Shown: positions 1,870 to 24,114 of the stretch, piece by piece | Layout: each line of letters starts with the position of its first letter | Position numbering within the stretch: the first letter of the stretch is position 1 | NCBI GenBank assembly: GCA_035510465.1 | Contig: DATKHC010000010.1 | Location: forward strand, 22,036-86,035 | Source: Candidatus Saccharimonadales bacterium | GTDB taxonomy: Bacteria > Patescibacteriota > Saccharimonadia > Saccharimonadales > DATKHC01 | Direction of reading: 5' to 3' | DNA length: 64,000 bases | Translations under genes and position numbers: made by a program | Notes under the pieces: generated by a model | Told to the model about the DNA's origin: nothing | What the model saw: only the letters and a program-made list of their open reading frames with translations | Databases searched by the model: none

Positions 1870-3567
1870 ATGGACAGATCAAAACCTCACAGGCACTTAA
1901 AAGCTAATCAGCAATTAAATCGTCGCGCGACCAGCCTCGATGGTTTTATACCTAATCGTCGAGGACGGCTTATTCAACCCAATTTCCATAAGCTACCGGA
2001 CACCGGAGGATTGCAGACAGACGACAAGATAATCGGAGACATGCCAAAGATTATGAAAGCAGGAGCCAAGTTACCAGCTGGCGCAGCCCCCCAACAATCC
2101 TTAGGGGTTACTTGGGCTTCTTCGAGACTTAAAGATCCCGGAGCGGTTGATTTAACGCGCCCACCGCGCAAAGGTAGAGCTAGGCGCAAACTTGGCAGCA
2201 AAGTACCTACCGGTTTCCCTTGGAAAAAAGTTCTTAAACGAGGTGGCATAGGCCTTGCTAGCGTGCTAATTGTTGTTGGGGGTTACGTTGGATACAAATT
2301 TGCTCACAACATTGATAAAGTTTTTGGCGGCAACATCTTTAGTGATTTAAGTGGTCTGTTTGGCAAAACAACCCTAAAGGGCGAAGCCGAAGGTAGAGTT
2401 AACGTTCTCCTCGCGGGTGACTCTTCGGACCAACAAGGGCACGGAGGAGCAAATTTAACAGACTCCATCTTAATTTTAAGTATCGACACCAATAACCACA
2501 CAGCGTTTTTACTTAGCATACCCAGAGACCTATGGGTAGACCAGCCTGGCGTAGGTTGGGAGAAGATCAATGCAGCTAATGACGATCTTGGGACAAATAT
2601 CCCAGGCTATCCGCAAAACGGCATGGGTCAGTTAGAGAATTTAGTTTCAACGGATCTAGGAATACCAATAGATTACTATGCGCTTTCAGATTATGGTGCT
2701 TTTCAAGACGCGGTTAATGCCGTAGGAGGAGTTAAAGTCGACATACAAAGCCCAGACCCGCGCGGTCTTTACGACCCCAACGTAAAACTTAAGTTGCCAA
2801 ACGGCGTTGTTAGCTTAAACGGACAGACGGCCTTAAACCTAGCCAGGGCTAGAGGCGACGGTTACGGCTCATATGGTTTTCCGGATTCCGATTTTGATAG
2901 AACAGAGCATCAGAGACAAATATTCACAGCTATTGTTCAAAAAGCCCAGACCTTAGGTTTCTTGGATAACCCAATTAAGATCGGTAACTTATTCGATGCA
3001 TTCGGCAACAACGTCCAGACCGATTTAAGCCTGAAAGACGTTCTTGCTCTTGTGCAGCTTACTAAGGGCTTAAACTTATCGAATATAAAGTCGTATGCTT
3101 ACTGTTCCACTCTAACGGTTGGTCAGGATGGTTGCACGACCCCACTTCTAACTGATTACACCGACCCAGCCTCTGGTCAGGAAGCACTTATACCAACTGC
3201 TGGTATCAGCAATTACGATCAGTTGCAGTATTACTATCAAACGTTATCTAGCAATAACCCGGTAGTTCAAGAAGCAGCCGGCGTAGTCGTATTAAACGGT
3301 GGTAATACGGTTGGGTTAGCAGGGAAGTATCAATCTCAACTTATCGGTAAAGGTGTGAACGTCACTTCCGTAGGCGATGCCGCCCAGCCCTACAGCCAAA
3401 CTGTTATTATGGATAATTCTGAGGGTAAGAAACCTGCTACGCTTCATTTACTTGAAAGCATATTTGGGGGCAGCACTATAAGTAATAACGCATCCATTAA
3501 CACCTCGAACGCTAGTTTTGTTGTTATACTCGGCGCCAACCAAGGGCCGCCTGCATCTTCTCAATAA
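1870..3567 (+). CDS. LCP family (LytR-CpsA-Psr) cell-envelope phosphotransferase with a long basic cytoplasmic N-tail
   Basis: Carries the LCP core VNVLLAGDSSD...LTDSILILSIDTNNHTAFLLSIPRDLWV. A single TM (IGLASVLIVVGGYVGYKF) follows about 120 basic residues. The C-terminal region is LytR_C-like. Confidence 0.8.
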   Translation: MDRSKPHRHLKANQQLNRRATSLDGFIPNRRGRLIQPNFHKLPDTGGLQTDDKIIGDMPKIMKAGAKLPAGAAPQQSLGVTWASSRLKDPGAVDLTRPPRKGRARRKLGSKVPTGFPWKKVLKRGGIGLASVLIVVGGYVGYKFAHNIDKVFGGNIFSDLSGLFGKTTLKGEAEGRVNVLLAGDSSDQQGHGGANLTDSILILSIDTNNHTAFLLSIPRDLWVDQPGVGWEKINAANDDLGTNIPGYPQNGMGQLENLVSTDLGIPIDYYALSDYGAFQDAVNAVGGVKVDIQSPDPRGLYDPNVKLKLPNGVVSLNGQTALNLARARGDGYGSYGFPDSDFDRTEHQRQIFTAIVQKAQTLGFLDNPIKIGNLFDAFGNNVQTDLSLKDVLALVQLTKGLNLSNIKSYAYCSTLTVGQDGCTTPLLTDYTDPASGQEALIPTAGISNYDQLQYYYQTLSSNNPVVQEAAGVVVLNGGNTVGLAGKYQSQLIGKGVNVTSVGDAAQPYSQTVIMDNSEGKKPATLHLLESIFGGSTISNNASINTSNASFVVILGANQGPPASSQ

Positions 3568-8806: not shown

Positions 8807-9306
8807 ATGCCGTTAACTGGCTGGGGGTCGTCTCCAGACCGATTTCAGAACTTTTTAGCACCTAAATTTGTAAATATCAATAACCCCTTTCAACGTATGA
8901 CTATGAGTAGATATTTAGAGTGTCTGATAGCGCAAAAGAACTTCCGATTGATATGAGAGAAAGAATAGACGTAGAGGCCGTAGAGACAGAATGGCGTAAG
9001 GTTATTGAAAGTGGAGTACTAATTCACCACGTGAAGATGGTTATACGCCAAGGCCTAGCCTCATAGAACAAATTGATATTACTCTTCGAAGATCTGGTTG
9101 GCTTAAGGGGAAAGCCACTAAGTTTTGCACTCGGTCAACTTACTATCAATGTATTTATATTAACCATTAATTACTGAAATGGTTTTAATTAATTTTCACT
9201 TCAATCCGTAAGCATAATAACTTTCTTATATAATATACTTGCTTAAAACACATATATAGTGTACTCTATTTATCATTAAATAAATTAATTTTTTGGAGAA
9301 GTCTAG

Positions 9307-9492
9307 ATGAGTGGTTCAAACTCACCAGTAACTCAGGTAGCCGCTACAGGGACAACTATCGCAAGTACATCATTACTTCCGTTTACGCATGGAAATAAGA
9401 CTGGTACATATGTACTGATTGTTGCGATATCTTGCGCGCTTATTGTCTTGTTAAGCAAGCTGATTAAACACCTTGCCGCAAAGTCTCTTTAG
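9307..9492 (+). CDS. Small tail-anchored membrane peptide (61 aa) with sorting-signal-like C-terminus
   Basis: No signal peptide. The C-terminus reads LLPFTHG, then a TM segment (TYVLIVAISCALIVLL), then a KLIKHLAAKSL basic tail. A TAG stop sits immediately upstream of the ATG. First gene of the sortase-EPS operon. Confidence 0.45.
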   Translation: MSGSNSPVTQVAATGTTIASTSLLPFTHGNKTGTYVLIVAISCALIVLLSKLIKHLAAKSL

Positions 9493-9535
9493 AGAAGACT
9501 TAAAGCAAAGTTAACCTTGTCTAGGTAGATTAATT

Positions 9536-10186
9536 ATGCATCGACCATCTATAAGTATTGCTAATTGGCGAATTTGGACAGTCACGGGGATCATTTATAT
9601 CGGATTCACGATGCTATTCCTGTTACCGGTTTTTGAGCAGCACCTTGCTACGATAACCGTAAATAAAGATCTAACAAGCTACCTGGGGTCTATTAAGCAA
9701 GATAAAAAGCCGATTTCTAGCCCCAGTCTCATTAGTGGTACACCAATCTCCATCTCAATTAATCGGTTAGGCGTTAATTTGCCGATAGAGAAGGGTTATT
9801 ACGATAATCTAGACGGTACTTGGACACTTAATAATTATCATGCATTCGTTGATGCTTCAACGGTTGCTAATCCAGTTGTAAGCAATGCGACTACCGGTAA
9901 TGCATTTATTTACGCTCACGACTTTGAAAACCTATTCGAAAAAACTAGTCAGTTAATCCCTGGAGACCTTGTAAACATAACTACATCGAACGACTATATA
10001 TTTACTTATGAATATCAATCAGGCGCAATAGTTGAACCATCAAGTACTTATATTCTTACCCAACAAGGTAATAAGGATCAACTTACCTTAATGACTTGTA
10101 GCGGGGCATGGTATCAAAATCGTCATGTTATGTACTTTTCGTTTCTAAATGTACAACCGCTAAAAAGTAAGACGGCTCAAACATGA
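9536..10186 (+). CDS. Sortase-family transpeptidase
   Basis: N-terminal TM. Sortase motifs ISINRLGVNLPIEKG, GNAFIYAHDF (His), LIPGDLVNI, LTLMTCSG (TLxTC with catalytic Cys) and a downstream NRH Arg. Confidence 0.7.
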   Translation: MHRPSISIANWRIWTVTGIIYIGFTMLFLLPVFEQHLATITVNKDLTSYLGSIKQDKKPISSPSLISGTPISISINRLGVNLPIEKGYYDNLDGTWTLNNYHAFVDASTVANPVVSNATTGNAFIYAHDFENLFEKTSQLIPGDLVNITTSNDYIFTYEYQSGAIVEPSSTYILTQQGNKDQLTLMTCSGAWYQNRHVMYFSFLNVQPLKSKTAQT

Positions 10187-11460
10187 TTGAAGACTCTGTA
10201 ACATTTATTTGCATTCTGGCCATTTTCAACTTGGTCCGGATGATGCTATATCTTGTTGGAAGCGACGTTTATAGCTATAAAAACCTAAAGCGAAAAAGTC
10301 AGAAAAAGCATAGCTTTAGGCCAACTGTCAGTTTAGTTGTCCCATGCCACAATGAAGAAGGCTTAATTGGAACTACGCTTGATTGCCTGAGTCGAATAGA
10401 CTATCCGAGAAATAAACTCCAAGTAATTATTGCCGACGACGGTTCGACAGATTCAACTCTTAAAATAGTTAAATCCTTCATCAGAAAAAATAAAGCTGGC
10501 GTCCAAATGGAAGTCTATAGCCAAAAAAATAACCATGGCAAGGCCGAAGCATTAAATAATGCCATGAAGCGTCGTGCGACCGGTAGTTTAATCATGTGCT
10601 TGGACGCCGATTCGCTTATAGCGGCTGACGGTATTAAAAAGGCCGTTGAATATTTCCGTGACCGTAATGCTGTGGCCATGGCCAGTAACGTTAACATTAT
10701 CGAAAACGGAACTATTATAGGACTTGCCCAACGGATTGAATATCTTATCTCCTATCATATGAAAAAGGCTCAAACTATTTACAATATCGAATATATCATC
10801 GGCGGGATAGGATCTATGTTTCGCCGAAGTATCTTAGAAAAAGTTTCATATTACGATACCAACACAATGACAGAAGACATTGATCTGACAATGAAAATAA
10901 TAAGCCTCGGTAACAAGAAAAACCGAGTTGTTTATGCTGCGGACTGTATTACATTCTCCGAAGCCGTTCCTTCGTTTAAGTCATTGATCAAGCAGAGGTA
11001 TCGGTGGAAATACGGTCGTCTACAAACGTTTATTAAAAACTATCACTTATTCTTTTCGACAGATAAAAGGTACACAAAAGCGCTATCCTGGTTTATTTTG
11101 CCATATGCCATTATTCAGGAACTGCTGTTTATCTTAGAACCTCTTGTCGTAACTCTTGTAATTGGATCAGCTATTTACTTCAAGCAACCAAGGATAATTC
11201 TTTTTGCAATTGCTATTATTAGTTCTTATATATGGGTTAATATTTGGTCAACCGTTCATCTATCAATTAAAGAACGAGCCCGACTTAGTATATTTGCTCC
11301 GGCAATGTATGTAATTTTATATACCCTCTCAGTAGTTGAGTATATAGCTTTGATTCAAACAATTATTAGAATACCGTTCATTAAAGATAGTATTTCAAAC
11401 AAAAAAACATCTTGGGTTTCACCTGAGAGAAGCGGGACAGCCAAGGAGGCTTTAATATGA
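10183..11460 (+). CDS. Membrane-integrated processive family-2 glycosyltransferase (PgaC/IcaA/cellulose-synthase-like)
   Basis: VVPCHNEE, IIADDGSTDST, DxD in CLDADS, and QRYRWKYG, the QxxRW processivity motif. C-terminal TM helices. 4-bp overlaps (ATGA) with both neighbours. Confidence 0.8.
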   Translation: MIEDSVTFICILAIFNLVRMMLYLVGSDVYSYKNLKRKSQKKHSFRPTVSLVVPCHNEEGLIGTTLDCLSRIDYPRNKLQVIIADDGSTDSTLKIVKSFIRKNKAGVQMEVYSQKNNHGKAEALNNAMKRRATGSLIMCLDADSLIAADGIKKAVEYFRDRNAVAMASNVNIIENGTIIGLAQRIEYLISYHMKKAQTIYNIEYIIGGIGSMFRRSILEKVSYYDTNTMTEDIDLTMKIISLGNKKNRVVYAADCITFSEAVPSFKSLIKQRYRWKYGRLQTFIKNYHLFFSTDKRYTKALSWFILPYAIIQELLFILEPLVVTLVIGSAIYFKQPRIILFAIAIISSYIWVNIWSTVHLSIKERARLSIFAPAMYVILYTLSVVEYIALIQTIIRIPFIKDSISNKKTSWVSPERSGTAKEALI

Positions 11461-13211
11461 GATCACTTAAAAATAGAATAGCTTACGTTGTCGTGGGTTT
11501 AGTTTATGCCAGTGTATTATTTTTTATTCCAGTACCGAGCGCTAAAGCTGACTCATCCAGTAATATAGTTGCCAATGGCAACCTTGAACAGAGTAGCGGA
11601 TCACCAGCAGAGCCAGTTGACTGGTCGCCTGAAAGTTGGGGAGTAAACAGCAGCACATTTAATTATTTAACTACCGGATACAATAGCTCTAACTCCGTAC
11701 AAACAATAGTTTCAGGGTATTCTAGCGGCGATGCGAAGTGGATATTTAACCCTGTAAGTATAACCGGAGGGAATAGTCACCAATATACAGACTGGTATGA
11801 GTCAAGTGCTGTAACTAATATTTGGGCAGAGTACACATTAAATGATGGTACAACTCAGTATGTTTGGTTAGGAGCTGATCAGGCTGCTTCAAGCTGGACA
11901 GAAACATCCGAAACATTTACTGCACCCTCCAATGCAGTAAGTGTTAGCGTCCTTCATGTTATAAATGCTAATGGGCAGCTTACACTAGATGATGTTTATT
12001 TATCAGTTCCTTGTACACCTACTTACGTTAATGGATTAGCTAATGGCAGTTTTGATCAAACTTGCCCTAATAGCCCCAATGTACCGTCCGGGTGGTTTAC
12101 ACAAACCTACGGTCCGGACCCTGCAGACTATGGCTACAGCACTACTGATTACAATGGCTCACCAGCAGTTACAATTACTAATAGTTCAGCCAATGACGAA
12201 GCCGGCTGGACGACTAATATACTTTCTCCGCTAAGTAATCAACGCTACCAATTGAGTTTCTGGCAAGAAGGGACTACCTATGTCTACGCATATGTTAATG
12301 AAACTCTAACGAATGGTTCTACGCAATCTGTATCGTTAATGTCGGCACCTTCTACCGCAGGTATATTTGGTACGAATCCTCCTACTTGGTCACAGTATAC
12401 AGATGCATTCGTAACACCTACCAATCTCCAGTCGATGCAGATAGTCATTGCTACAAGTGGAGAAGGAACCTTAGCATTAGCTAACGTAACTTTAAACCTT
12501 TTGACTAACCAAAACCCAACAATATTTAATAGCGGTATGGTTAGCGTAACACTCGATGACAATTTTGTTGATCAATATACAAACGGAGTTAAAACATTAA
12601 ATGAGGATGGATTAAAGGGAACATTTTACGTAGTCGGTGGAACAATAGGTACTAAAGGTTATATGACCCGATCTCAGCTAATCCAAACTGCCAACGATGG
12701 AAACGAAATAGCATCACATCAATATCATTTATCTGATGAGGTAGAGTTAAGCACTTCAACTTTGGTTAGTGAAATAACAGGCAATATTGCCTATCTGCAA
12801 CAAATGTTGGGTTCACAATATCCAATCACAGATTTTGCTAGTCCATACGGCTCGTACACATCCTCTGACACTGATACAGTTATGCAATATGAGCAATCCG
12901 ACCGAACAACAGATGGAGAAATGAACACGAAAGCTAATCTTGACCTTAGCCAAATACATGCTCGTTTGGTATTGCCTACCACCACGCCAGCTGAAGTTGA
13001 ATCGTGGATAGCTCAAGCTCAGACGGAGCATGACTGGTTAGTACTGGTCTATCACGGCATTACTAGATCCCCACTTAACTCCGAGGAAGCTCAATATGCT
13101 ACTAAGCCAGGAAATTTTATAAAAGAAATGTCTTACTTGGAAGCTAGCGGTATTACCGTCGACCCAGTTAATCAAGCACTCACTTCGCTTGAAGCTCAAA
13201 TTAATCAATAA
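11457..13211 (+). CDS. Secreted polysaccharide deacetylase (CE4/NodB domain) with two N-terminal CBM4/9-like modules
   Basis: Signal peptide present. Two roughly 150 aa W/Y-rich repeats each begin NGNLEQ / NGSFDQ. The C-terminal CE4 motifs are VTLDDNF (TFDD-type) and SHQYH (HxxH). PgaB/IcaB-like. Confidence 0.75.
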   Translation: MRSLKNRIAYVVVGLVYASVLFFIPVPSAKADSSSNIVANGNLEQSSGSPAEPVDWSPESWGVNSSTFNYLTTGYNSSNSVQTIVSGYSSGDAKWIFNPVSITGGNSHQYTDWYESSAVTNIWAEYTLNDGTTQYVWLGADQAASSWTETSETFTAPSNAVSVSVLHVINANGQLTLDDVYLSVPCTPTYVNGLANGSFDQTCPNSPNVPSGWFTQTYGPDPADYGYSTTDYNGSPAVTITNSSANDEAGWTTNILSPLSNQRYQLSFWQEGTTYVYAYVNETLTNGSTQSVSLMSAPSTAGIFGTNPPTWSQYTDAFVTPTNLQSMQIVIATSGEGTLALANVTLNLLTNQNPTIFNSGMVSVTLDDNFVDQYTNGVKTLNEDGLKGTFYVVGGTIGTKGYMTRSQLIQTANDGNEIASHQYHLSDEVELSTSTLVSEITGNIAYLQQMLGSQYPITDFASPYGSYTSSDTDTVMQYEQSDRTTDGEMNTKANLDLSQIHARLVLPTTTPAEVESWIAQAQTEHDWLVLVYHGITRSPLNSEEAQYATKPGNFIKEMSYLEASGITVDPVNQALTSLEAQINQ

Positions 13212-14417: not shown

Positions 14418-15344
14418 TTAAATCAAAGAACCATATATAACTATATTGTTGCTATAGTGGTGGGTTTGTTCACTAAATACCCCACCACAAGTAATCAATC
14501 TAAGACCAGCGTAGTCAACGTTCCCATATACAAGTTGGGTTGGGAAACTATTTTGCGGATACTCTCTAAGAGCATCGACTTTAAACCTGGCAGTAGTCCC
14601 ATCAGCCCTAACTACATCAATTTCATCGCCTGGCTGAAGCAACCTTAAGTCCCAAAAGACACCAATACCACCTACGTGATCTACGTGACCAACTATAACT
14701 GAAGCCCCAATTGAACCTGGAGTTGGTGAACCTGTGTACCAGCCGGTGGTTGTATAGTCACTTGGCGGAGTTAAACTCCCGTCTGGTTGCAGACCATCGG
14801 GAAATACCGAAGCGTCAACTTCAATGCTCGGAATTTGAATTTCGACTGGCGTAGAACTAGGCATCGAAAGGGGTACAGCCGGTGTAACAATAGTACTAGA
14901 TTTTATAGCACCGGTGTCTGCCGTATTAATATTTATTCGGGCTACACCATAAACACTAGGTCCAAAAACAAACATCCCCGCAACTCCGGCCATGATAATA
15001 ATTAGACTGGCTGGATTTATTTGAGAGAAGTATTTCGAATTATTAACAGATTGCTGAATTATATTGAGTCGTGATCTGCGCTTTATGCCAGAGAAAGAGA
15101 TTTCCCTAAACGGCATGAAGTACAGAGGCAAGACTATCTGAGCCAGCAGTTTCGAACGATTGTTAGGTTTAGTTCGGAAACGTCTAACCGAGACAGAAAA
15201 ACGAATCTTGGAAAACCGTACTTGCCAACGACGAGCTCGAGTGTGATCTTTCCTAGCTGAACTCCTATTAAAATAGGAAATTGACCGCTTGGCGAGCACC
15301 TTTGCTTTATCAGCGAGGGGCTTTTTGATGCCTAACACGGTCAA
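14418..15344 (-). CDS. Class F (actinobacterial-type) sortase with long basic cytoplasmic N-extension
   Basis: IQIPSIEVDASVFPDG...GWYTGSPTPGSIGASVIVGHVDH...LLQPGDEIDV...FPTQLVYGNVDYAGLRLITCGG. About 130 basic residues precede the TM. Confidence 0.7.
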   Translation of the reverse strand: MTVLGIKKPLADKAKVLAKRSISYFNRSSARKDHTRARRWQVRFSKIRFSVSVRRFRTKPNNRSKLLAQIVLPLYFMPFREISFSGIKRRSRLNIIQQSVNNSKYFSQINPASLIIIMAGVAGMFVFGPSVYGVARININTADTGAIKSSTIVTPAVPLSMPSSTPVEIQIPSIEVDASVFPDGLQPDGSLTPPSDYTTTGWYTGSPTPGSIGASVIVGHVDHVGGIGVFWDLRLLQPGDEIDVVRADGTTARFKVDALREYPQNSFPTQLVYGNVDYAGLRLITCGGVFSEQTHHYSNNIVIYGSLI

Positions 15345-15376: not shown

Positions 15377-15970
15377 TTACTGGTTTTTACTCAGGCGTCG
15401 TACGCCCAAGAAAGCTATAGCAGCAGAACCGACTAGTCCGAGAGCTGCAGCAACGTCTAGAGTTTTTACACCACCGAAACCAGCGTTAACTGGACCGACA
15501 GGCGCAGCAACGGGTGCTGGGGCCGGGGCTTGGGCTGTAGCAGCTACAGGTGGAGTAGGTGTTGGGGTTGTTGTTACAGGAGGAATAACGACTGGCTGAG
15601 CACATGCTGTGGCCAGAGTTACGGTAGCAGTACGGCTACGCATTGTACTATCGCTAGGGAAGTTACCCTCAAGCATTAATGTGTCGCTACCTGCTTTTGT
15701 GCCATCAGCAACCTGAGTAAAATCCTCAGTGCTTTTTGCAGCTACAGTTGTTCCGACAGGAACAACAGCAGTGTCACTTGAACCTGTGATTGTTAGTGCT
15801 TCATTTTCGACAGAGTTATCTACAACCCATGTAATTTTAAAAGAACCATCAGTTTGACACTGTCCGGTTCCTGTTAATCCGTAAGTCCAGGCAAGAGCTG
15901 AACCACTCATAAATGCTACTGTTGCTAGGGTTGTTATTCCGCTCGCAGCTGTTAATAAAACTCGTTTCAT
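15377..15970 (-). CDS. Secreted Pro/Thr/Ala-rich surface protein with C-terminal hydrophobic anchor and RR tail (candidate sortase substrate, no canonical LPXTG)
   Basis: Signal peptide MKRVLLTAASGITTLATVAFMSGSALA. PTPTPP/APAPAP linker. C-terminus VNAGFGGVKTLDVAAALGLVGSAAIAFLGVRRLSKNQ. Lies immediately upstream of the class F sortase on the same strand. Confidence 0.6.
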   Translation of the reverse strand: MKRVLLTAASGITTLATVAFMSGSALAWTYGLTGTGQCQTDGSFKITWVVDNSVENEALTITGSSDTAVVPVGTTVAAKSTEDFTQVADGTKAGSDTLMLEGNFPSDSTMRSRTATVTLATACAQPVVIPPVTTTPTPTPPVAATAQAPAPAPVAAPVGPVNAGFGGVKTLDVAAALGLVGSAAIAFLGVRRLSKNQ

Positions 15971-16531: not shown

Positions 16532-17208
16532 ACCTAGGGCTGATTGTAATTTAGCTAGGTTTACTACGATAAAAGAATGGTCTTTCTGTGATAGCAAGCC
16601 TTCTTTGAAAAGAAGCTCAATCGCCCTGCTGGCGGTCTCTCGGTTCATGCTAATAGAATCAGCGATATCCTGATGGGTGATTAGGAACGTCAATGAATAC
16701 TCCTGCCCCTAGGTGTTTGCCAAACCTTTTAGCCAGGTATATTATTTCTGCAATAATTCTTTCTCTGGCTCTGGCTGATCTAAACTCTAAGGTTTGGATC
16801 CTCTGTGTATACAGAGCAATGATGTTTACGGTCTGATTTAACACTTCCTGAGCCAACCATTGATTATTCCCCGTGTCTTCGCGCAACCTATCTTTGGATG
16901 CTTTTATAACGGTAACTTGACATTGCTTGGTAAGACAAGCCTGTTATATTTGTCCCGTCTAGCGCCCAAGGAAGCGGAATAAACTCGCCTGCTTGATGGA
17001 TTAGCAAAAGGTTCCCATTTCCGTTTCGTGATACAGAATACGCTTTAACAAAACCAAGCTTTATAAGATAAACTCCATCAGGCTCTTCAAGGCCATTAAT
17101 AATAGTCTCTTCTTTAGAGAACTCCATAATTAAACCATCATTGAAATGAGATATTATGCTTTTATCTTTGGTCTCCGAAGCTAGTGCAGCCCGTAAACTA
17201 GTATCCAT
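16532..17208 (-). pseudogene. Crp/Fnr-family regulator pseudogene (two frameshifts)
   Basis: Three consecutive minus-strand segments in three different frames. The cNMP-binding domain is 17208..16888. The middle segment, 16886..16659, reads RSARARERIIAEIIYLAKRFGK. The HTH, about 16680..16532, reads ITHQDIADSISMNRETASRAIELLFKEGLL. The intact paralog at 36936..37586 aligns with them collinearly. Confidence 0.7.
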
Positions 17209-17649: not shown

Positions 17650-18078
17650 TTATGTACGTTTTCCGTGTCTTTTTAGCTCGGCAACCCTAAGTCTCACAGC
17701 TTGACGGTCAACCATAGCTTGCGCATTCTCTAAGCTTGTCTGATCTTTAGCTTCACTCTTCAGCTTCATTGCACGCTCAAATGCCTTTTGGGCTTCAGCT
17801 TCGTTGATTTCATCTCCGTTATCGGCTTCATCAACCAAAACCTTAAGTACATTATCGGCAATGTCAATGACACCTCCGTTGGTAGCGAAGAATTCACGAG
17901 CCGAGTCCGGATCATTGCTCCTTCTTCTAACCATCACGATACCGTTATTTACGACGCTGATTAGCGGCATATGGTGCTCCAGTACGCCTATTTGACCGTC
18001 AAGCGTCGGTAAAACAACCTCATAAACATCATCGTCAAACTTACTGCCCGTTATGCTAACCAGCTGGAACCTAAACAT
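17650..18078 (-). CDS. atpC: F1 ATP synthase epsilon subunit
   Basis: 142 aa. Last gene of the operon. Epsilon-like beta-sandwich N-part plus helical C-part. Confidence 0.75.
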   Translation of the reverse strand: MFRFQLVSITGSKFDDDVYEVVLPTLDGQIGVLEHHMPLISVVNNGIVMVRRRSNDPDSAREFFATNGGVIDIADNVLKVLVDEADNGDEINEAEAQKAFERAMKLKSEAKDQTSLENAQAMVDRQAVRLRVAELKRHGKRT

Positions 18079-20375
<2,297 letters not shown>

Positions 20376-20380
20376 GTTAA

Positions 20381-21940
20381 CTACCCCTCAGCCTTATCTA
20401 CTTTTTTAGTTTCGCTCTTATAGCTAGCACAGACCGCTTTGGCAACTTCTAGTAACGAGGCGTTTTGGGCGTCTGTTGGCTTATCGCCACTATTAAGGTC
20501 GCTAACTAATTTAGCGTGCTTGGCTTTTAGCTCACGGTGAAGGGCGGACTCAGCCAACTTAACCTTGTCTAGAGGCACAGCATCAAAACAGCCGTTATTA
20601 GCAGCGTATAGACTGGAGTACATTTCCCAAATAGAGTAGGGCGTAAATTGGGGTTGTTTCAAAAGTTCGGTTAGTCGCTGCCCTCGCTCAATAGTCTGGC
20701 GGGTCTCAGTATCAAGATCGGTCGAGAATTGAGAAAAAGCCGCTAGCTCTCGGAATTGAGCCAGGTCAAGTTTTAAGCCTCCGCCAACGCTTTTAATAGA
20801 TTTGTACTGGGCGTCACCACCGACTCTAGACACGCTTAAGCCTACAGATATGGCTGGACGAATACCCTGGTAGAACAAATCAGTCTCAAGGAATATTTGA
20901 CCATCAGTAATAGAAATAACATTGGTTGGTATGTATGCGCTAATATCACCGGCCTGGGTCTCAATTATTGGCAGAGCAGTTAAGCTGCCTGAGCCCAGCT
21001 TATCGCTAAGCTTAGCTGAGCGTTCCAAAAGCCGCGAATGCAGATAGAAAACGTCACCAGGATAGGCTTCACGGCCAGGTGGACGGCGAAGTAGTAGTGA
21101 CATTTGGCGGTAAGCCGCGGCATGCTTCGTCAAATCATCATAGATAATCAAGGCATGTTTACCGTTATCCCGGAAGTACTCTCCCATAGAGGAACCAGTG
21201 TAGGGTGCCAAGTACAGCAGGGCTGCTGGGTCAGAAGGGCCAGTCGCTACAATTATAGTCTGGTCCATAACTCCTTCACGCTGCAGTCTTTCCTTCAGAG
21301 CGGCTACTTTAGACAGTTTCTGGCCAATTGCCACGTAAACGTTAATAACTCCGGTTTTCTGTTTAGCCTGATTAACCATAGTATCAACCGCCACGGCCGT
21401 TTTACCGGTCTGTCTATCCCCAATAATTAGCTCTCGCTGGCCTCTTCCAATCGGCACCGTAGCATCGACAGCCATTATGCCGCTCATTAAAGGTTCATAG
21501 ACATGCTTACGATCAAGTACTCCTGGGGCCGGACGTTCCACTCTGTAGTTTTGCTTGGTTTTAATCGGCCCGCCACCATCCAGGGGCTTACCTAAAGGAT
21601 CAACGACTCGGCCGACTAGCTCTGGCCCTACTGGAACTTCTAGAACATGGCCGCTCAAACGAACCTTAGCGCCCGCTTTAACAGCTGTGTCTTCACCAAT
21701 TAGCACTGCGCCTATCTCGTCTTCGCCAAGATTAAAGGCAAAGGCCATAACTTTTTGACCACTTACGCCTTCAACTTCGAGCATTTCATTGAAGCCAGCG
21801 TTGGCTAACCCATAAACCCACGCCACACCATCTCCAACTCGAGTGACAACCCCGACGTCTTCAATCTGGGGACGTTGTTTTAACTCGGCAATTGCTGCGC
21901 GAATGTCGTCTGATAGTTCTGTAATTGATAACTCTGGCAC
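20381..21940 (-). CDS. atpA: F1 ATP synthase alpha subunit
   Basis: P-loop GDRQTGKTAVAVDTM. 519 aa. Confidence 0.95.
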   Translation of the reverse strand: MPELSITELSDDIRAAIAELKQRPQIEDVGVVTRVGDGVAWVYGLANAGFNEMLEVEGVSGQKVMAFAFNLGEDEIGAVLIGEDTAVKAGAKVRLSGHVLEVPVGPELVGRVVDPLGKPLDGGGPIKTKQNYRVERPAPGVLDRKHVYEPLMSGIMAVDATVPIGRGQRELIIGDRQTGKTAVAVDTMVNQAKQKTGVINVYVAIGQKLSKVAALKERLQREGVMDQTIIVATGPSDPAALLYLAPYTGSSMGEYFRDNGKHALIIYDDLTKHAAAYRQMSLLLRRPPGREAYPGDVFYLHSRLLERSAKLSDKLGSGSLTALPIIETQAGDISAYIPTNVISITDGQIFLETDLFYQGIRPAISVGLSVSRVGGDAQYKSIKSVGGGLKLDLAQFRELAAFSQFSTDLDTETRQTIERGQRLTELLKQPQFTPYSIWEMYSSLYAANNGCFDAVPLDKVKLAESALHRELKAKHAKLVSDLNSGDKPTDAQNASLLEVAKAVCASYKSETKKVDKAEG

Positions 21941-21943
21941 TTC

Positions 21944-22348
21944 TTAATCCTTTCCGGCAATCGTCAACTGTTTAAACTTGTTTAATTTGGCCTCAAAGCT
22001 TAGATCGAGCTGTTGGTTCGCTAAGTTGAGCCTGACTCCACCAATAATATTAGGGTCTCTAATTTCACCAACAATAATTCGCTTAGCATGCGGGTAGAGC
22101 TTCTTGATCTGCTTTTTAATATCCTCTACGGCGCCAGCAGACAAAGGATGAGCACTAGTAGCTAGCACTTCAACGTATCCAGCGTCCGCCCAATCAGCTT
22201 GAACGTCACGAAGCAGCGAGGCAAGTTCGGAAATACGCCCTTCACTTAGCAGGTATGCGGCAACTTCACGACTCAGCCTCTTAGTCGAAACGCCCGCCAT
22301 AGCATCGTCTGCTACAATCTGGGCAATTTGGGTACGTGGTGTTTTCAT
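21944..22348 (-). CDS. atpH: F1 ATP synthase delta subunit (short, 134 aa)
   Basis: Operon position between b and alpha, and an OSCP-like C-terminal region. About 40 aa shorter than the typical 175-180 aa. Confidence 0.65.
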   Translation of the reverse strand: MKTPRTQIAQIVADDAMAGVSTKRLSREVAAYLLSEGRISELASLLRDVQADWADAGYVEVLATSAHPLSAGAVEDIKKQIKKLYPHAKRIIVGEIRDPNIIGGVRLNLANQQLDLSFEAKLNKFKQLTIAGKD

Positions 22349-22884
22349 CGACTAACCTGGCGCTCTCTTAAGGCCCGCTCGATTAGCTGACCATCCTTCT
22401 TAGCATCAACTTTCTCTTCAATAATTGCTTCGGTGGTGTCTGCGATCAGGCCGATTAGTTCCTTCTCCAGTTTCTGCCTAACCCTTTGGGTGTTCTGAAC
22501 TATTTGAGCTTCAGCTTCGCTTAAAATGTTGGCCGCTTTCTGGCGGGATTTCTCTTCAGCATCGCGAATGGCTTGGCGACCAGCGTCTTGGGCCTGAGCA
22601 ATAATGCCATCAGCCTCACGACGGGCTTGGTGCAACAACTTTTCAACCTTTTCTTCCATTTCAACTTGTTCAGCTTGGAGCTTTTCTGCCAGTTTAACGT
22701 TGCCCTCGATGGTGTCGCGGCGTTGCTTCATCATTTTCAGAATCGGGCCAAAGGCATAGTGACGCAGCACCAGATATGCAAGAATGAAAGTAACCAACTG
22801 GATCAAGAAGGCCTGCCCACTGAAACCGAGCGCGCCAATACCTGACGAGTTCGCAGCAAAATGATTTAGTAACGCGCTATTCAT
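22345..22884 (-). CDS. atpF: Fo ATP synthase subunit b
   Basis: N-terminal TM followed by a long charged coiled-coil (EEK/AEQ repeats). 4-bp overlap with atpH. Confidence 0.8.
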   Translation of the reverse strand: MNSALLNHFAANSSGIGALGFSGQAFLIQLVTFILAYLVLRHYAFGPILKMMKQRRDTIEGNVKLAEKLQAEQVEMEEKVEKLLHQARREADGIIAQAQDAGRQAIRDAEEKSRQKAANILSEAEAQIVQNTQRVRQKLEKELIGLIADTTEAIIEEKVDAKKDGQLIERALRERQVSR

Positions 22885-22972
22885 AGTGCTCGGCGTCCAT
22901 TCCGTCTATCCGTATATCTTGAACTTCTCTCATTGTCTTAATCTAAGATTCTCCTATGTGTCTCTTTTGTTT

Positions 22973-23203
22973 TTATGCAAAGATAAATACTGACGCGAAG
23001 GCCAGTAAGCCGAAAAGCTCAACAATAGCCACGAAGATCAGGGCTTGACCCAACAGTGATCGAGCTGCTCCTGGGTTACGACCAACGGCCTGTAAATAAT
23101 TACCGCCAATCAGACCAATACCAATACCCGGACCAATAAAACCTCCACCGATCATTAAACCTTTGGCAATAATAGTTGTGTTAATAGTGTCTGCAACTGT
23201 CAT
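22973..23203 (-). CDS. atpE: Fo ATP synthase subunit c
   Basis: 76 aa two-helix hairpin. GLMIGGGFIGPGIGIGLIGG loop and a conserved acidic residue in IVELFGLLAFA. Confidence 0.9.
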   Translation of the reverse strand: MTVADTINTTIIAKGLMIGGGFIGPGIGIGLIGGNYLQAVGRNPGAARSLLGQALIFVAIVELFGLLAFASVFIFA

Positions 23204-23262
23204 ACTATTTCACTTTCTCCTCTTTATTAATACTAATGTTTGTACTTAAACTCATTATAAAA

Positions 23263-24114
23263 CTAGCCACCCTCAGCCTCACCGTGCGTTACCTGTATTG
23301 TTTCAGGAACCTCTCTCTCGGTCAAGTCATGCTCGTGCCCGTGAGCTGAATTTACTGCAATCGCCAAATAGTTAACTGCCAGAATTACGAATATGTAGGC
23401 CTGAAGTGCCGCTACAGCCACTTCTAACAGGGTAAATGGCAGAGCAGTCAACGGAGCAGCAATATGACCAAGGTATGAGAAGACGGCAATCAGAATTTCA
23501 CCAATAGTGATGTTCAGGAAAAGTCGTAAACTTAAACTGATCACCCTACTTAGGTCAGTTACCATTTCTAGCATGCCAATAACTAGATAAAGCGGATTTA
23601 GCGGATTGCCAACAAAAAAATGTTTAAGGTATCGCCTGAAGCCACCCGACTCCCGAATTGAGGCTACGTAAACTAGTAGCATGGTGACCACACCCAAAGC
23701 TAAAGTTCCACTTAAATCACCAGTGAAGGGCCTAAGCAGCGGGAAGCCGTTACCCTTGATACCTTCACCAACAATCGGCAATAAGCCTAACCAGTTATTG
23801 AATAGAATGAAGAAGAAGAGGGTTACGAAGTAGGGAGTATAGCGCCTACCCGTTTCCTGATTATCAAAAGCACCCTCTACTAGGTTAGTAATAAACTCTA
23901 CGCCGACTTCGACATATTGAATAAATCCACCCTTAGGCTTAACTGTCACTTTTCGAGCAACAAGTATTAGAGCAACAGCAATTGCTATCACGCAAATCCA
24001 GCCATAGAACATTGAGTTGGTTATTGCGATACCATGGAATGCAAACACTTCATGCGGTGCAATGTGAACGACCGGCCCAGAAGTTGCCATCATTTTTATT
24101 AGTCCGCTAATCAT
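23263..24114 (-). CDS. atpB: Fo ATP synthase subunit a
   Basis: 283 aa polytopic protein with the conserved Arg in LSLRLFLNITIGE. Confidence 0.9.
   Translation of the reverse strand: MISGLIKMMATSGPVVHIAPHEVFAFHGIAITNSMFYGWICVIAIAVALILVARKVTVKPKGGFIQYVEVGVEFITNLVEGAFDNQETGRRYTPYFVTLFFFILFNNWLGLLPIVGEGIKGNGFPLLRPFTGDLSGTLALGVVTMLLVYVASIRESGGFRRYLKHFFVGNPLNPLYLVIGMLEMVTDLSRVISLSLRLFLNITIGEILIAVFSYLGHIAAPLTALPFTLLEVAVAALQAYIFVILAVNYLAIAVNSAHGHEHDLTEREVPETIQVTHGEAEGG

Follow-up and report, generated by a model that had tools for sequence, protein, structure and literature searches.

A mini-peptide with a sorting signal, a sortase, and a processive GT2 synthase are encoded one after the other in a gene triad that, as judged by sequence comparison, is the conserved core of a four-gene operon from a tiny soil-dwelling member of Candidatus Saccharimonadales (CPR), with a CE4 deacetylase as accessory member. 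The module is apparently undescribed, and it suggests that a peptide becomes linked to a surface polysaccharide or that both share one anchor. Neither the literature nor the curated models yielded a description of the peptide-sortase-GT2 arrangement, in keeping with a preliminary description of this DNA, which had called a sortase within a synthase-dependent EPS operon undescribed.

The operon spans positions 9307–13211 of the window, i.e., the whole stretch of 64,000 nucleotides that was analyzed, and consists of four open reading frames, all on the + strand. The preliminary description had reported the same coordinates and had noted ATGA overlaps among the last three genes, and these are found at 10183–10186 (sortase/GT2) and 11457–11460 (GT2/CE4); its assignment of the genes likewise agrees with their Pfam matches to Sortase, Glycos_transf_2, and Polysacc_deac_1. 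Upstream lies an intergenic region (8807–9306, no strand assigned), presumably containing the promoter and 5′ region, which is indeed AT-rich, with a GC content of 34.8% that falls to 27% in the last 240 bp, the value for the window being 43.1%. The idea of a leader of about 500 bp did not hold as a conserved feature, because the gap upstream of the peptide gene ranges from 84 to ∼500 bp among relatives, and an Rfam search of 8807–9306 gave no match at E ≤ 1, i.e., no known RNA element.

The first gene (9307–9492, + strand), preceded by a GGAG ribosome-binding site 8 nt ahead of its ATG, encodes a peptide of 61 aa. Residues 1–23 form an uncharged N-tail rich in Gly, Ala, Ser, Thr, and Val, followed by LPFTHG (residues 24–29, nt 9376–9393), a hydrophobic stretch that covers approximately residues 30–58 and would form a single TM helix, and the basic C-terminal tail KLIKHLAAKSL. 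As noted before, the sequence contains no signal peptide, nor does it have a basic n-region, and we infer that the peptide is nevertheless exposed to the extracytoplasmic sortase domain. Searches of Pfam and NCBIfam with the window peptide gave no match; one relative matches Pfam Gram_pos_anchor, and JGI annotates another as an LPXTG protein. The family comprises at least 50 clusters, all of 56–78 aa, with LPxT kept in 48 of 50 and a general motif LPxT[G/S/H/A]G, in which P1′ is G, S, H, or A, while 38 of 50 have G at P2′. The N-tails consist of G, A, S, T, and V at 80%, with 0.5 K/R per tail, and the C-tails carry 3.3 K/R among the last 14 residues, while the TM sequences are not conserved and the N-termini vary (MSG, MYG, MSE, MYE, MYQ), MSG occurring in 22 of 50. 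LPFTHG itself is invariant across five homologues with 41–65% identity. It had been regarded as a mimic of a sorting signal, a view that the family comparison overturns in favor of a subclade variant: since canonical LPxTG occurs in 31 of the 50 members, the peptide is best read as a genuine dedicated sortase substrate. A His at P1′, as in the window subclade, is believed to be unusual among sortase substrates.

The second gene (9536–10186, + strand) encodes a membrane-anchored sortase of 216 aa, in which an N-terminal TM helix and helical stalk (residues 8–55) precede the catalytic β-barrel. It matches Pfam PF04203 with an E value of 6.8e-15 (55.4 bits, cutoff 26.6) and falls below every curated cutoff of the NCBIfam sortase class models (A to F, GN). 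The TLxTC motif reported earlier is present as TLMTC, and the catalytic residues are His128 (nt 9917–9919), Cys188 within this motif (nt 10097–10099), and Arg196 (nt 10121–10123). The preliminary description had allowed that the protein might lack the His-Cys-Arg fold; these three residues are invariant across 29 relatives, and the AF2 model (pLDDT 89.8) has a predicted sortase fold, with class A (7t8z, E 5e-10, TM 0.71) and class E sortases as best Foldseek matches. Sequence, conservation, and modeled fold thus indicate a genuine and intact sortase. Other members of its family have larger LPxTG proteins directly upstream or even fused to them, so that substrate adjacency is a family trait, and distant members adjoin ordinary LPxTG proteins of ∼200 aa. 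A further sortase, of class F and paired with a neighboring substrate of its own, lies 1.2 kb from the operon, and the operon sortase is therefore taken to be a dedicated extra enzyme.

The third gene (10183–11460, + strand) encodes a PgaC/IcaA-like membrane GT2 of 425 aa with the motifs D86 (DDG), D141-A-D143, T230-E-D232, and Q271-R-Y-R-W275 (nt 10993–11007), whose residues are all invariant in nine orthologues. Hydropathy places one TM segment N-terminally and three or more C-terminally, so the QxxRW motif and C-terminal helices of the preliminary description are both recovered. The Pfam Glycos_transf_2 match has an E value of 3.3e-30, and the best full-length NCBIfam match is PgaC_IcaA (1.5e-49), with residues 14–416 aligned to positions 7–406 of the 407 of the model, at 169 bits, far short of the equivalog cutoff of 422 bits. 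The runners-up are the XrtG-associated GT2, CelA, and NodC, the XrtP-associated GT2 being the fourth best match, and the PDB matches are 6yv7 and BcsA. By these similarities the protein groups with the processive synthases. It does not group with the polyprenol-phosphate transferases, the other identity raised in the preliminary description; a polyprenyl-phosphate transferase model reaches E 0.047 as compared with 1.5e-49 for PgaC_IcaA.

The fourth gene (11457–13211, + strand) encodes a secreted CE4 (NodB) de-N-acetylase of 584 aa, for which the earlier reading is borne out by a signal peptide (residues 1–31) and the motifs TLDD, HQYH, SPYG, and LVYH. Two β-sandwich, CBM-like modules (approximately residues 33–186 and 187–345, nt 11553–12491) precede the CE4 domain (approximately residues 359–540, nt 12531–13076); the Pfam Polysacc_deac_1 match has an E value of 1.8e-15. 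Both modules had been ascribed to CBM4/9: the second resembles CBM_4_9 over residues 193–333 at 23.2 bits, under the cutoff of 25.9, and the first has no match in the Pfam search, yet it is homologous to the second (hhalign probability 98.7%, E 2.7e-16). In the PDB, the protein matches chitin, xylan, and peptidoglycan deacetylases that have NodB domains, and the best NCBIfam match, HfsH (2.7e-16), is below cutoff, which points to a generic NodB domain, not specifically to PgaB or IcaB. Of the PNAG-like operon proposed earlier, the likeness to PgaC/IcaA stands as the best model match, and that to PgaB/IcaB is not a specific one; with the GT2 far below the equivalog cutoff and the CE4 generic, a PNAG-like polymer is no more than the best guess.

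The order peptide-sortase-GT2 occurs in the window and in 12 further distinct loci, all with different flanks (L001–L004/L006, counted as one locus, L005, L007, L008, L009, L011, L012, L015, L016, L021, L022, and L023), three of which were reached from peptide matches with E values of 4e-8 to 6e-7. The peptide gene is directly 5′ of the sortase gene in every locus where upstream DNA is present, and the truncated locus L010 still has the sortase-GT2 junction. Sortase and GT2 are linked in 13 of 13 triad loci and share a 4-bp overlap in 11 of 15 junctions, while identity to the window sortase drops to ∼28%; on this comparative evidence, their coupling is conserved and no accident of the window genome. 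Ten of the 13 loci have a deacetylase within them or close by, namely CE4 in nine and, in L022, a protein of the PIG-L family. CE4 orthologues lie 3′ of the GT2 in L001, L007, L009, L015, and L016, but the position varies among loci (downstream, upstream, or divergent), none was found beside the triad in L008, L011, and L022, and in L008 the GT2 is followed by a different gene; CE4 is thus regarded as accessory. Conservation of the whole four-gene block, the check suggested in the preliminary description, therefore applies to the first three genes and not to CE4 as a constant member.

The operon shares with PgaABCD of E. coli and IcaADBC of staphylococci a processive membrane GT2 of ∼410–440 aa with the D, DxD, TED, and QxxRW motifs, and an extracytoplasmic CE4 partner. 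It differs because homologues of the PgaD/IcaD partner and of the PgaA porin are both missing, the CE4 protein combines a generic NodB domain with two CBM-like modules instead of the PgaB architecture and is not always adjacent, and the cassette has a sortase and a mini LPXTG peptide as integral members, neither of which is known to us from any Pga or Ica locus. Dedicated sortase-substrate pairs include SrtB-IsdC, the class C pilin sortases, and the class GN sortases with their adjacent target, and the operon resembles them in having a second specialized sortase beside its own substrate with a variant motif. Unlike in those pairs, the substrate family has only 56–78 aa with neither signal peptide nor passenger domain, and the sortase, under all curated class cutoffs, is tied by translational coupling to a polysaccharide synthase. 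In PEP-CTERM/exosortase systems, exopolysaccharide loci contain both a sorting signal made up of motif, TM helix, and basic tail and the enzyme that processes it, the exosortases being polytopic membrane proteins unrelated to sortases (PMC1569441). The operon likewise combines a C-terminal sorting signal with an enzyme in a polysaccharide locus, and its GT2 has exosortase-associated GT2s as second and fourth best NCBIfam matches, but it uses a true sortase and an LPxTG signal, and the likeness is analogous and apparently convergent, the CPR cell here being monoderm-like. That a glycan can reach the wall via a sortase substrate has a precedent in GspA of Actinomyces oris, a sortase-anchored LPXTG protein that bears a glycopolymer (PMC6381275). 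In the GspA-LcpA-SrtA system, however, GspA is an ordinary secreted protein that receives its glycan from a lipid-linked donor through an LCP enzyme, while the operon has a synthase-type GT2 as partner, and a peptide tail of ∼25 residues would have to serve as carrier.

We tentatively propose, with confidence a little short of even, that the operon is a surface-glycan module of Saccharimonadales in which the dedicated sortase, a cysteine transpeptidase, couples the mini-peptide to the envelope along with a poly-GlcNAc-type polymer. The analysis shows what the genes encode, the catalytic motifs, the modeled sortase fold, and that triad and peptide family are conserved, whereas we infer how the peptide lies in the membrane, where it is cut, what it is joined to, and which polymer is made. 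The GT2, translationally coupled to the sortase, would polymerize and export a HexNAc polymer, most likely poly-GlcNAc, on which CE4, accessory in the window clade, would create free GlcN amines. The peptide would insert N-out/C-in without a signal peptide, through N-tail translocation of the Pf3-coat/YidC type, and the sortase would cut LPFT|HG after Thr27 and hold the 27-residue peptide as a thioester. Resolution of this thioester onto an envelope amine would place peptide and polymer in one covalent surface product.

Instead, the operon may serve canonical wall anchoring only, with the 27-residue peptide passed to lipid II or peptidoglycan and never covalently linked to the polymer, an outcome that we consider unlikely but quite credible. 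GT2 and CE4 would then produce a PNAG-like exopolysaccharide that is either free or bound ionically, and co-expression would reflect that both activities remodel the surface, e.g., through wall-bound peptide stubs that bind or organize the polymer. The characterized sortases known to us all use peptidoglycan or pilin amines, the tripartite sorting signal of the peptide is the classical one, and both the ordinary LPxTG neighbors of distant family sortases and the three triads with no CE4 nearby fit this explanation, which leaves unexplained why nothing but a tail and the sorting signal is left of the substrate, why the sortase is so regularly coupled and linked to the GT2, and why a class F sortase is kept for ordinary surface proteins. 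Sortase transfer to lipid II has been summarized (PMC1569441).

It is improbable that the peptide serves as an auxiliary membrane component of the synthase (IcaD/PgaD-like) or of the sortase (SafA-like). PgaC and IcaA do require small membrane partners, but IcaD and PgaD have two TM helices and the peptide has one, it has no Pfam or NCBIfam match, its TM sequences vary across the family, and its most conserved feature is LPxT(G) right before a TM helix and basic tail, i.e., a sorting signal. SafA of Actinobacteria is also a small single-TM protein genetically linked to a sortase, but it is encoded downstream, with N-in/C-out topology and PGP and FPW motifs (PMC9282373), and, instead of being a substrate, it protects the sortase against signal peptidase; the peptide is encoded upstream, lacks FPW, has LPxTG ahead of its TM helix, and would be N-out. 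Still less probable, to the point of being very doubtful, is a proteolytic role for the sortase, in which hydrolysis of the peptide would free a soluble fragment of ∼27 residues with signal or toxin function, or yield a head-to-tail cyclized or polymerized product, in each case unrelated to the polysaccharide. Sortases can hydrolyze, in vitro they can cyclize substrates with N-terminal Gly, and an MSG start is common in the family (22 of 50); however, the N-terminus varies, Met would stay before Tyr, the 50 clusters have no conserved Lys for pilin-type polymerization, and the GT2 linkage is left unexplained. As to a chance adjacency, with the peptide not expressed and the sortase merely beside an EPS operon, small ORFs are frequently spurious and this one has no database family, but it is effectively refuted by 50 homologous clusters with conserved length and motif and by an identical position in 13 loci with different flanks, and the peptide gene has a good ribosome-binding site.

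For the proposed coupling of peptide and polymer, the preferred acceptor would be the GlcN amines of the partly deacetylated polymer leaving the neighboring synthase; alternatively, a glycan-bearing peptide would be moved to peptidoglycan. A polysaccharide amine as acceptor, or a GT2 primed by a peptide, would amount to novel chemistry, which counts against the proposal: to our knowledge, the natural acceptors of sortases are limited to amines of peptidoglycan precursors, pilin lysines, and water. Since CE4 is missing beside the triad in L008, L011, and L022, an obligatory GlcN acceptor would need a deacetylase encoded elsewhere in these cases. The window also carries a gene for an LCP enzyme (1870–3567), so that other glycan-anchoring routes exist in this genome, a further point against the proposal. 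By either route, a synthase-made polysaccharide, a polymer that has no lipid carrier, would become fixed to the cell surface.

All four genes of the putative exopolysaccharide operon were confirmed as open reading frames on the + strand, at the positions assigned to them in the preliminary description, namely a 61-aa peptide (9307–9492), a 216-aa sortase (9536–10186; Pfam Sortase, 6.8e-15), a 425-aa GT2 synthase (10183–11460; Pfam Glycos_transf_2, 3.3e-30), and a 584-aa protein with a CE4 deacetylase domain (11457–13211; Pfam Polysacc_deac_1, 1.8e-15). The ATGA overlaps among the last three genes are also present, at 10183–10186 (sortase/GT2) and 11457–11460 (GT2/CE4), and a GGAG ribosome-binding site lies ahead of the peptide gene. 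The interpretation of this locus as a sortase-coupled operon for a polymer resembling poly-N-acetylglucosamine (PNAG) is partly supported and has to be sharpened: the peptide, the sortase, and the GT2 form the core, the peptide belongs to what is probably a genuine family of sortase substrates, and the deacetylase is an accessory.

The peptide-sortase-GT2 order, referred to here as the triad, occurs in the window and at 12 further distinct loci, i.e., L001–L004/L006 (one locus, found in several assemblies and in two different upstream contexts), L005, L007, L008, L009, L011, L012, L015, L016, L021, L022, and L023, and the flanking genes are different at essentially every one of them. The sortase and GT2 genes overlap by 4 bp at 11 of 15 junctions, so that their translational coupling is conserved along with the gene order, and the sortase-GT2 junction is kept at L010, a locus truncated ahead of the sortase. 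The three loci reached via the most distant peptides (L021–L023; E 4e-8 to 6e-7) keep the triad as well. Searching genome contigs with a profile of the sortase alignment returned one locus only, identical to L001, while a metagenome profile search with seven sequences gave six loci, two of which (L015 and L016) were of use.

The deacetylase behaves differently. Its gene is directly downstream of GT2 in the window and at L001, L007, L009, L015, and L016; at L021 it is upstream on the same strand and carries a dockerin (L021:3374–4966), and at L023 it is upstream and divergent, with the CE4 domain first and CBM-like repeats at the C-terminus (L023:3923–5740). No CE4 gene adjoining the triad was found at L008, L011, or L022, the last of which has a gene for a PIG-L family protein 3 kb upstream. 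The gene that follows GT2 at L008 (L008:10686–12464) encodes a 593-aa protein unrelated to CE4; it was considered as a dispersin-like PNAG hydrolase and dropped, since its GH20b match was weak (E 0.012) and it matched no sequence in the PDB. Because the position and presence of CE4 vary in this way, the conserved core is the triad, with the deacetylase as an accessory that is often present and that appears to have been repeatedly recruited or rearranged around a constant triad. Hence, of the four-gene block, the first three members are conserved, but not the fourth.

Beyond these loci, more distant sortases of the family are also found next to potential substrates. At L013 (L013:392–2341; also L014) the sortase, P0080, follows a 201-aa LPYTG protein and overlaps by 4 bp the gene of a membrane protein having, at best, a faint likeness to the GT2 (hhalign probability 10 %, E 0.003). 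This arrangement is possibly related to the triad in a degenerate form. Two other relatives, P0120 (412 aa) and P0157 (398 aa), are single ORFs joining the sortase in-frame to an LPxTG substrate, whose motif (LPYTGG or LPDTG) is followed by a TM helix; these could be either real fusions or read-through gene calls. LPxTG proteins that adjoin, or are fused to, these distant enzymes indicate that substrate adjacency is a habit of the family.

The operon sortase scores 55.4 bits against PF04203 (cutoff 26.6), and an alignment with 29 relatives shows no variation at His128, Cys188 (within TLMTC), or Arg196. The AF2 model (pLDDT 89.8) predicts an N-terminal helix at residues 8–55, corresponding to a TM helix and stalk, followed by the eight-stranded β-barrel expected of a sortase; when this model was compared with the PDB by Foldseek, class A sortases came out on top (e.g., 7t8z, E 5e-10, target-normalized TM ∼0.71), and class E sortases were also returned. 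With the catalytic residues invariant and the sortase fold confidently predicted, the loss of fold or catalytic residues that would have spoken against a sortase was not seen. None of the NCBIfam class cutoffs (A, B, C, D, E, F, GN) is reached: the best class match is class C, with 34 bits vs a cutoff of 160, classes E, F, and GN give 22, 14, and 25 bits, respectively, and the generic model TIGR01076 gives 37.4 bits vs a cutoff of 39.35. When the sortase was searched in full with HMMER against 1.84 billion representatives, 948 clusters were obtained at E≤1e-3, of which 537 also reached E≤1e-10 and 17 reached E≤1e-30; the 29 aligned relatives were drawn from these clusters.

The window peptide, MSGSNSPVTQVAATGTTIASTSLLPFTHGNKTGTYVLIVAISCALIVLLSKLIKHLAAKSL (9307–9492, + strand), carries the motif LPFTHG, with His at the first position after Thr (P1′) and Gly one position further on. 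This motif is followed by a TM segment at about residues 30–58 (mean hydropathy 2.7) and the tail KLIKHLAAKSL, and thus the peptide has the hydrophobic segment and positively charged C-terminal tail of a sorting signal. No Pfam or NCBIfam model matches it, and one of its relatives has a weak PF00746 match. LPFTHG is invariant in homologues of 41–65 % identity, and the more distant peptides that adjoin related sortases have canonical or near-canonical motifs: LPFTGS at L009, LPATGE at L011, LPNTAG at L012, and LPFTSG at both L015 and L016. A profile built from nine peptides recovered 50 clusters of the family, 56–78 aa long, of which 48 have LPxT; P1′ is Gly in 31 (the canonical LPxTG), Ser in 9, His in 5, and Ala in 5, and the next position, P2′, is Gly in 38. 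As canonical or near-canonical LPxT dominates the family, LPFTHG is probably a subclade variant within a genuine family of LPxTG mini-substrates. The preliminary description was therefore right about the motif, the TM segment, the basic tail, and the lack of a signal peptide, but probably not in regarding the peptide as a mimic of a sorting signal.

What precedes the motif is a short and nearly uncharged tail. Across the family the N-terminal tail before LP has a median of 22 residues, of which 80 % are G/A/S/T/V, with a mean of 0.5 K/R and 0.28 D/E, while the C-terminus has a mean of 3.3 K/R within its last 14 residues. Inspection of the n-region and hydropathy of the window peptide revealed no Sec signal peptide: the basic n-region is missing and the maximum 17-residue hydropathy is 0.97–0.99, a value that also led us to reject a hairpin with a membrane-embedded N-tail. 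For the family, the median of this maximum is 1.25, as compared with 2.5 for the TM helix of the peptides. The tail is thus only mildly hydrophobic, and is not predicted to form a signal peptide or a further TM helix.

Turning to the synthase, the best NCBIfam model of the GT2 is PgaC_IcaA (TIGR03937; 1.5e-49), which is followed by the XrtG-associated GT2, CelA, the XrtP-associated GT2, and NodC, whereas the polyprenyl-phosphate sugar transferase model PpgS gives only E 0.047. Nine orthologues all keep the motifs D86, D141-x-D143, T230-E-D232, and Q271-R-x-R-W275, hydropathy indicates one TM segment at the N-terminus and three or more at the C-terminus, and the PDB sequence neighbors are 6yv7, a minimal cellulose-synthase-like enzyme, and BcsA. 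Taken together, the models, motifs, TM layout, and PDB neighbors place the GT2 among the processive membrane synthases of the BcsA, PgaC, NodC, and HAS type, and a grouping with the polyprenol-phosphate transferases, which would have counted against the operon, is not what was found. The alignment to PgaC_IcaA spans the full length (residues 14–416 vs 7–406 of the 407 model positions), and yet the 169.1 bits obtained are far from the equivalog cutoff of 422.3; consequently, the term PNAG-like reflects the best full-length model, but does not extend to membership in the PgaC/IcaA equivalog. That the product may be β-1,6-GlcNAc finds indirect support in this best model and in the deacetylase, either CE4 or PIG-L, encoded nearby at 10 of the 13 loci.

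The secreted partner consists of a signal peptide, two CBM-like modules, and then the CE4 domain, which scores 57.5 bits against PF01522 (cutoff 23.1). Its motifs, TLDD, HQYH, SPYG, and LVYH, follow the reference set (TFDD, H..H, RPPY, LxH) except for the absent Arg of motif 3, so that both profile and catalytic motifs point to a CE4 deacetylase. The two modules (about residues 33–186 and 187–345) show homology with one another (hhalign probability 98.7 %, E 2.7e-16); their assignment to CBM4/9 is less secure, with residues 193–333 of module 2 at 23.2 bits against CBM_4_9 (PF02018), below the cutoff of 25.9 and matched in only one of six orthologues, and with no CBM_4_9 match for module 1. The single-sequence structure prediction of the protein has a pLDDT of 31.5. 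PDB neighbors of the CE4 domain are generic NodB domains of chitin, xylan, and peptidoglycan deacetylases, and IcaB (4wcj) appears only after the chitin and xylan enzymes, at E 8.6e-5. Of the comparison with PgaB/IcaB, the CE4/NodB domain is retained, but no similarity or architecture specific to these proteins, such as the GH-like C-terminal domain of PgaB.

The region upstream of the operon had been described as a long AT-rich leader of roughly 500 bp. It is indeed AT-rich, with a GC content of 34.8 % over the 500-bp gap and 27 % over the last 240 bp vs 43.1 % for the window; however, in the relatives the gap varies from 84 to about 500 bp, and for this reason a conserved leader is unsupported. 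An Rfam search of the whole window and of the upstream region returned no match, for the latter even at E≤1, and a c-di-GMP or other riboswitch was rejected accordingly. Promoter-like and terminator-like matches were not commoner than in shuffled sequence.

Other genes in the window include a second sortase, 1.2 kb downstream of the operon on the opposite strand (14418–15344), which is of class F (178.5 bits vs the NCBIfam cutoff of 166). Its neighbor on the same strand, a 197-aa secreted protein (15377–15970), ends in ...GPVNAGFGGVKTLDV, a TM helix, and RRLSKNQ; it has its own C-terminal anchor and no LPXTG. A comparable pair is seen at L012 (L012:1549–3188), where the neighbor of a 342-aa sortase is a 194-aa protein ending in ...GVNAGNVDMKT, a TM helix, and RFRRFGA; in Saccharimonadales, VNAG is a candidate sorting motif for sortases of this type. 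Since the class F enzyme is separate and has its own neighbor, the operon sortase is an additional, dedicated enzyme. Further downstream, on the − strand, are a 106-aa protein with a cyclic-nucleotide-binding domain match exactly at the cutoff of 27.5 bits (16888–17208) and a housekeeping operon for the epsilon, beta, alpha, and a subunits of an F-type ATP synthase (17650–24114), both identified with Pfam.

As regards known systems, a full-text literature search found no sortase inside a synthase-type polysaccharide operon, in line with the preliminary description, and none of the texts searched describes mini LPXTG peptides devoid of a signal peptide. On this basis, we class the triad as a conserved architecture that is new, although its parts are known. 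A conceptual precedent for the pairing of a sorting enzyme with a PgaC-like GT2 is the PEP-CTERM/exosortase system, whose EpsH is situated in EPS loci (PMC1569441); NCBIfam has GT2 models associated with XrtG and XrtP, and the window GT2 matches both. The likeness is limited to the GT2, because exosortases are unrelated to sortases: that system relies on a polytopic EpsH/Xrt and a PEP motif, whereas here there is a PF04203 sortase and LPxT. The GT2 and CE4 pair would work much as in the Pga and Ica systems, but neither protein of the window is a member of those families. SafA, on the other hand, is encoded downstream of its sortase, is N-in/C-out, and has PGP and FPW motifs (PMC9282373), whereas the window peptide is encoded upstream, lacks FPW and PGP, and has a basic C-terminal tail.

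A mechanism can be proposed from these elements. By the positive-inside rule the peptide would be oriented N-out/C-in, and its insertion without a signal peptide could proceed by translocation of the short, nearly uncharged N-tail, a process for which the Pf3 coat protein with YidC is a known example. The sortase would then cleave after Thr27, and the acyl-enzyme would be resolved onto an amine of the envelope. Either the deacetylase would generate GlcN amines in the polymer to which the peptide is then ligated, or a peptide already carrying the glycan would be transferred to peptidoglycan, by analogy with GspA of A. oris, which is glycosylated (PMC6381275).

The main rival of both routes is ordinary anchoring of the peptide to peptidoglycan, with a relation to the polymer that is only non-covalent or regulatory. 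A common covalent product of peptide and polymer is favored over this because the tail is bare, with no passenger function, and the sortase is tied most tightly to the synthase. In its explicit form, the proposal is that the 27-residue LPFT-peptide is amide-joined to GlcN amines as the polymer leaves the co-translated synthase, or that the small-residue tail is the site on which the GT2 assembles the polymer, after which the sortase would attach this conjugate to peptidoglycan; we regard this reading as less likely than not, but with a realistic chance of being true. The argument that the organism, being without LCP enzymes, needs another anchoring route was rejected, as an LCP enzyme (LytR_cpsA_psr + LytR_C) is encoded about 6 kb upstream of the operon (1870–3567, + strand), which gives the organism the classical wall-attachment route for lipid-linked glycopolymers as well. 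Among other fates of the peptide, head-to-tail cyclization, N-terminal polymerization, and a released or cyclic peptide were set aside in view of the variable N-terminus (MSG, MYG, MSE), and pilin-type polymerization in view of the absence of a conserved Lys in the family. Neither a SafA-like nor an IcaD/PgaD-like role fits the position and motifs of the peptide.

Sortase substrates are usually full-size secreted proteins, and no polysaccharide synthase is known to us to be partnered by a sortase. That a bare-signal peptide is conserved together with its own sortase and a PgaC-like synthase implies that peptide sorting and the assembly of surface glycans are connected, and the literature search found no description of such a connection. 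For Saccharibacteria, which live on host bacteria and have a little-characterized surface chemistry, a poly-GlcNAc layer that is covalently anchored or peptide-tagged would be a plausible adhesion or protection factor. The module is small, with four genes and a predicted transferred peptide of 27 residues. If either covalent route is true, the product would be a new type of peptide-polysaccharide conjugate and a new covalent way of anchoring a synthase-dependent glycan on the cell surface of an ultrasmall episymbiont, and should a sugar amine be the acceptor, sortase chemistry would be extended and a natural peptide-to-glycan ligase would be at hand.
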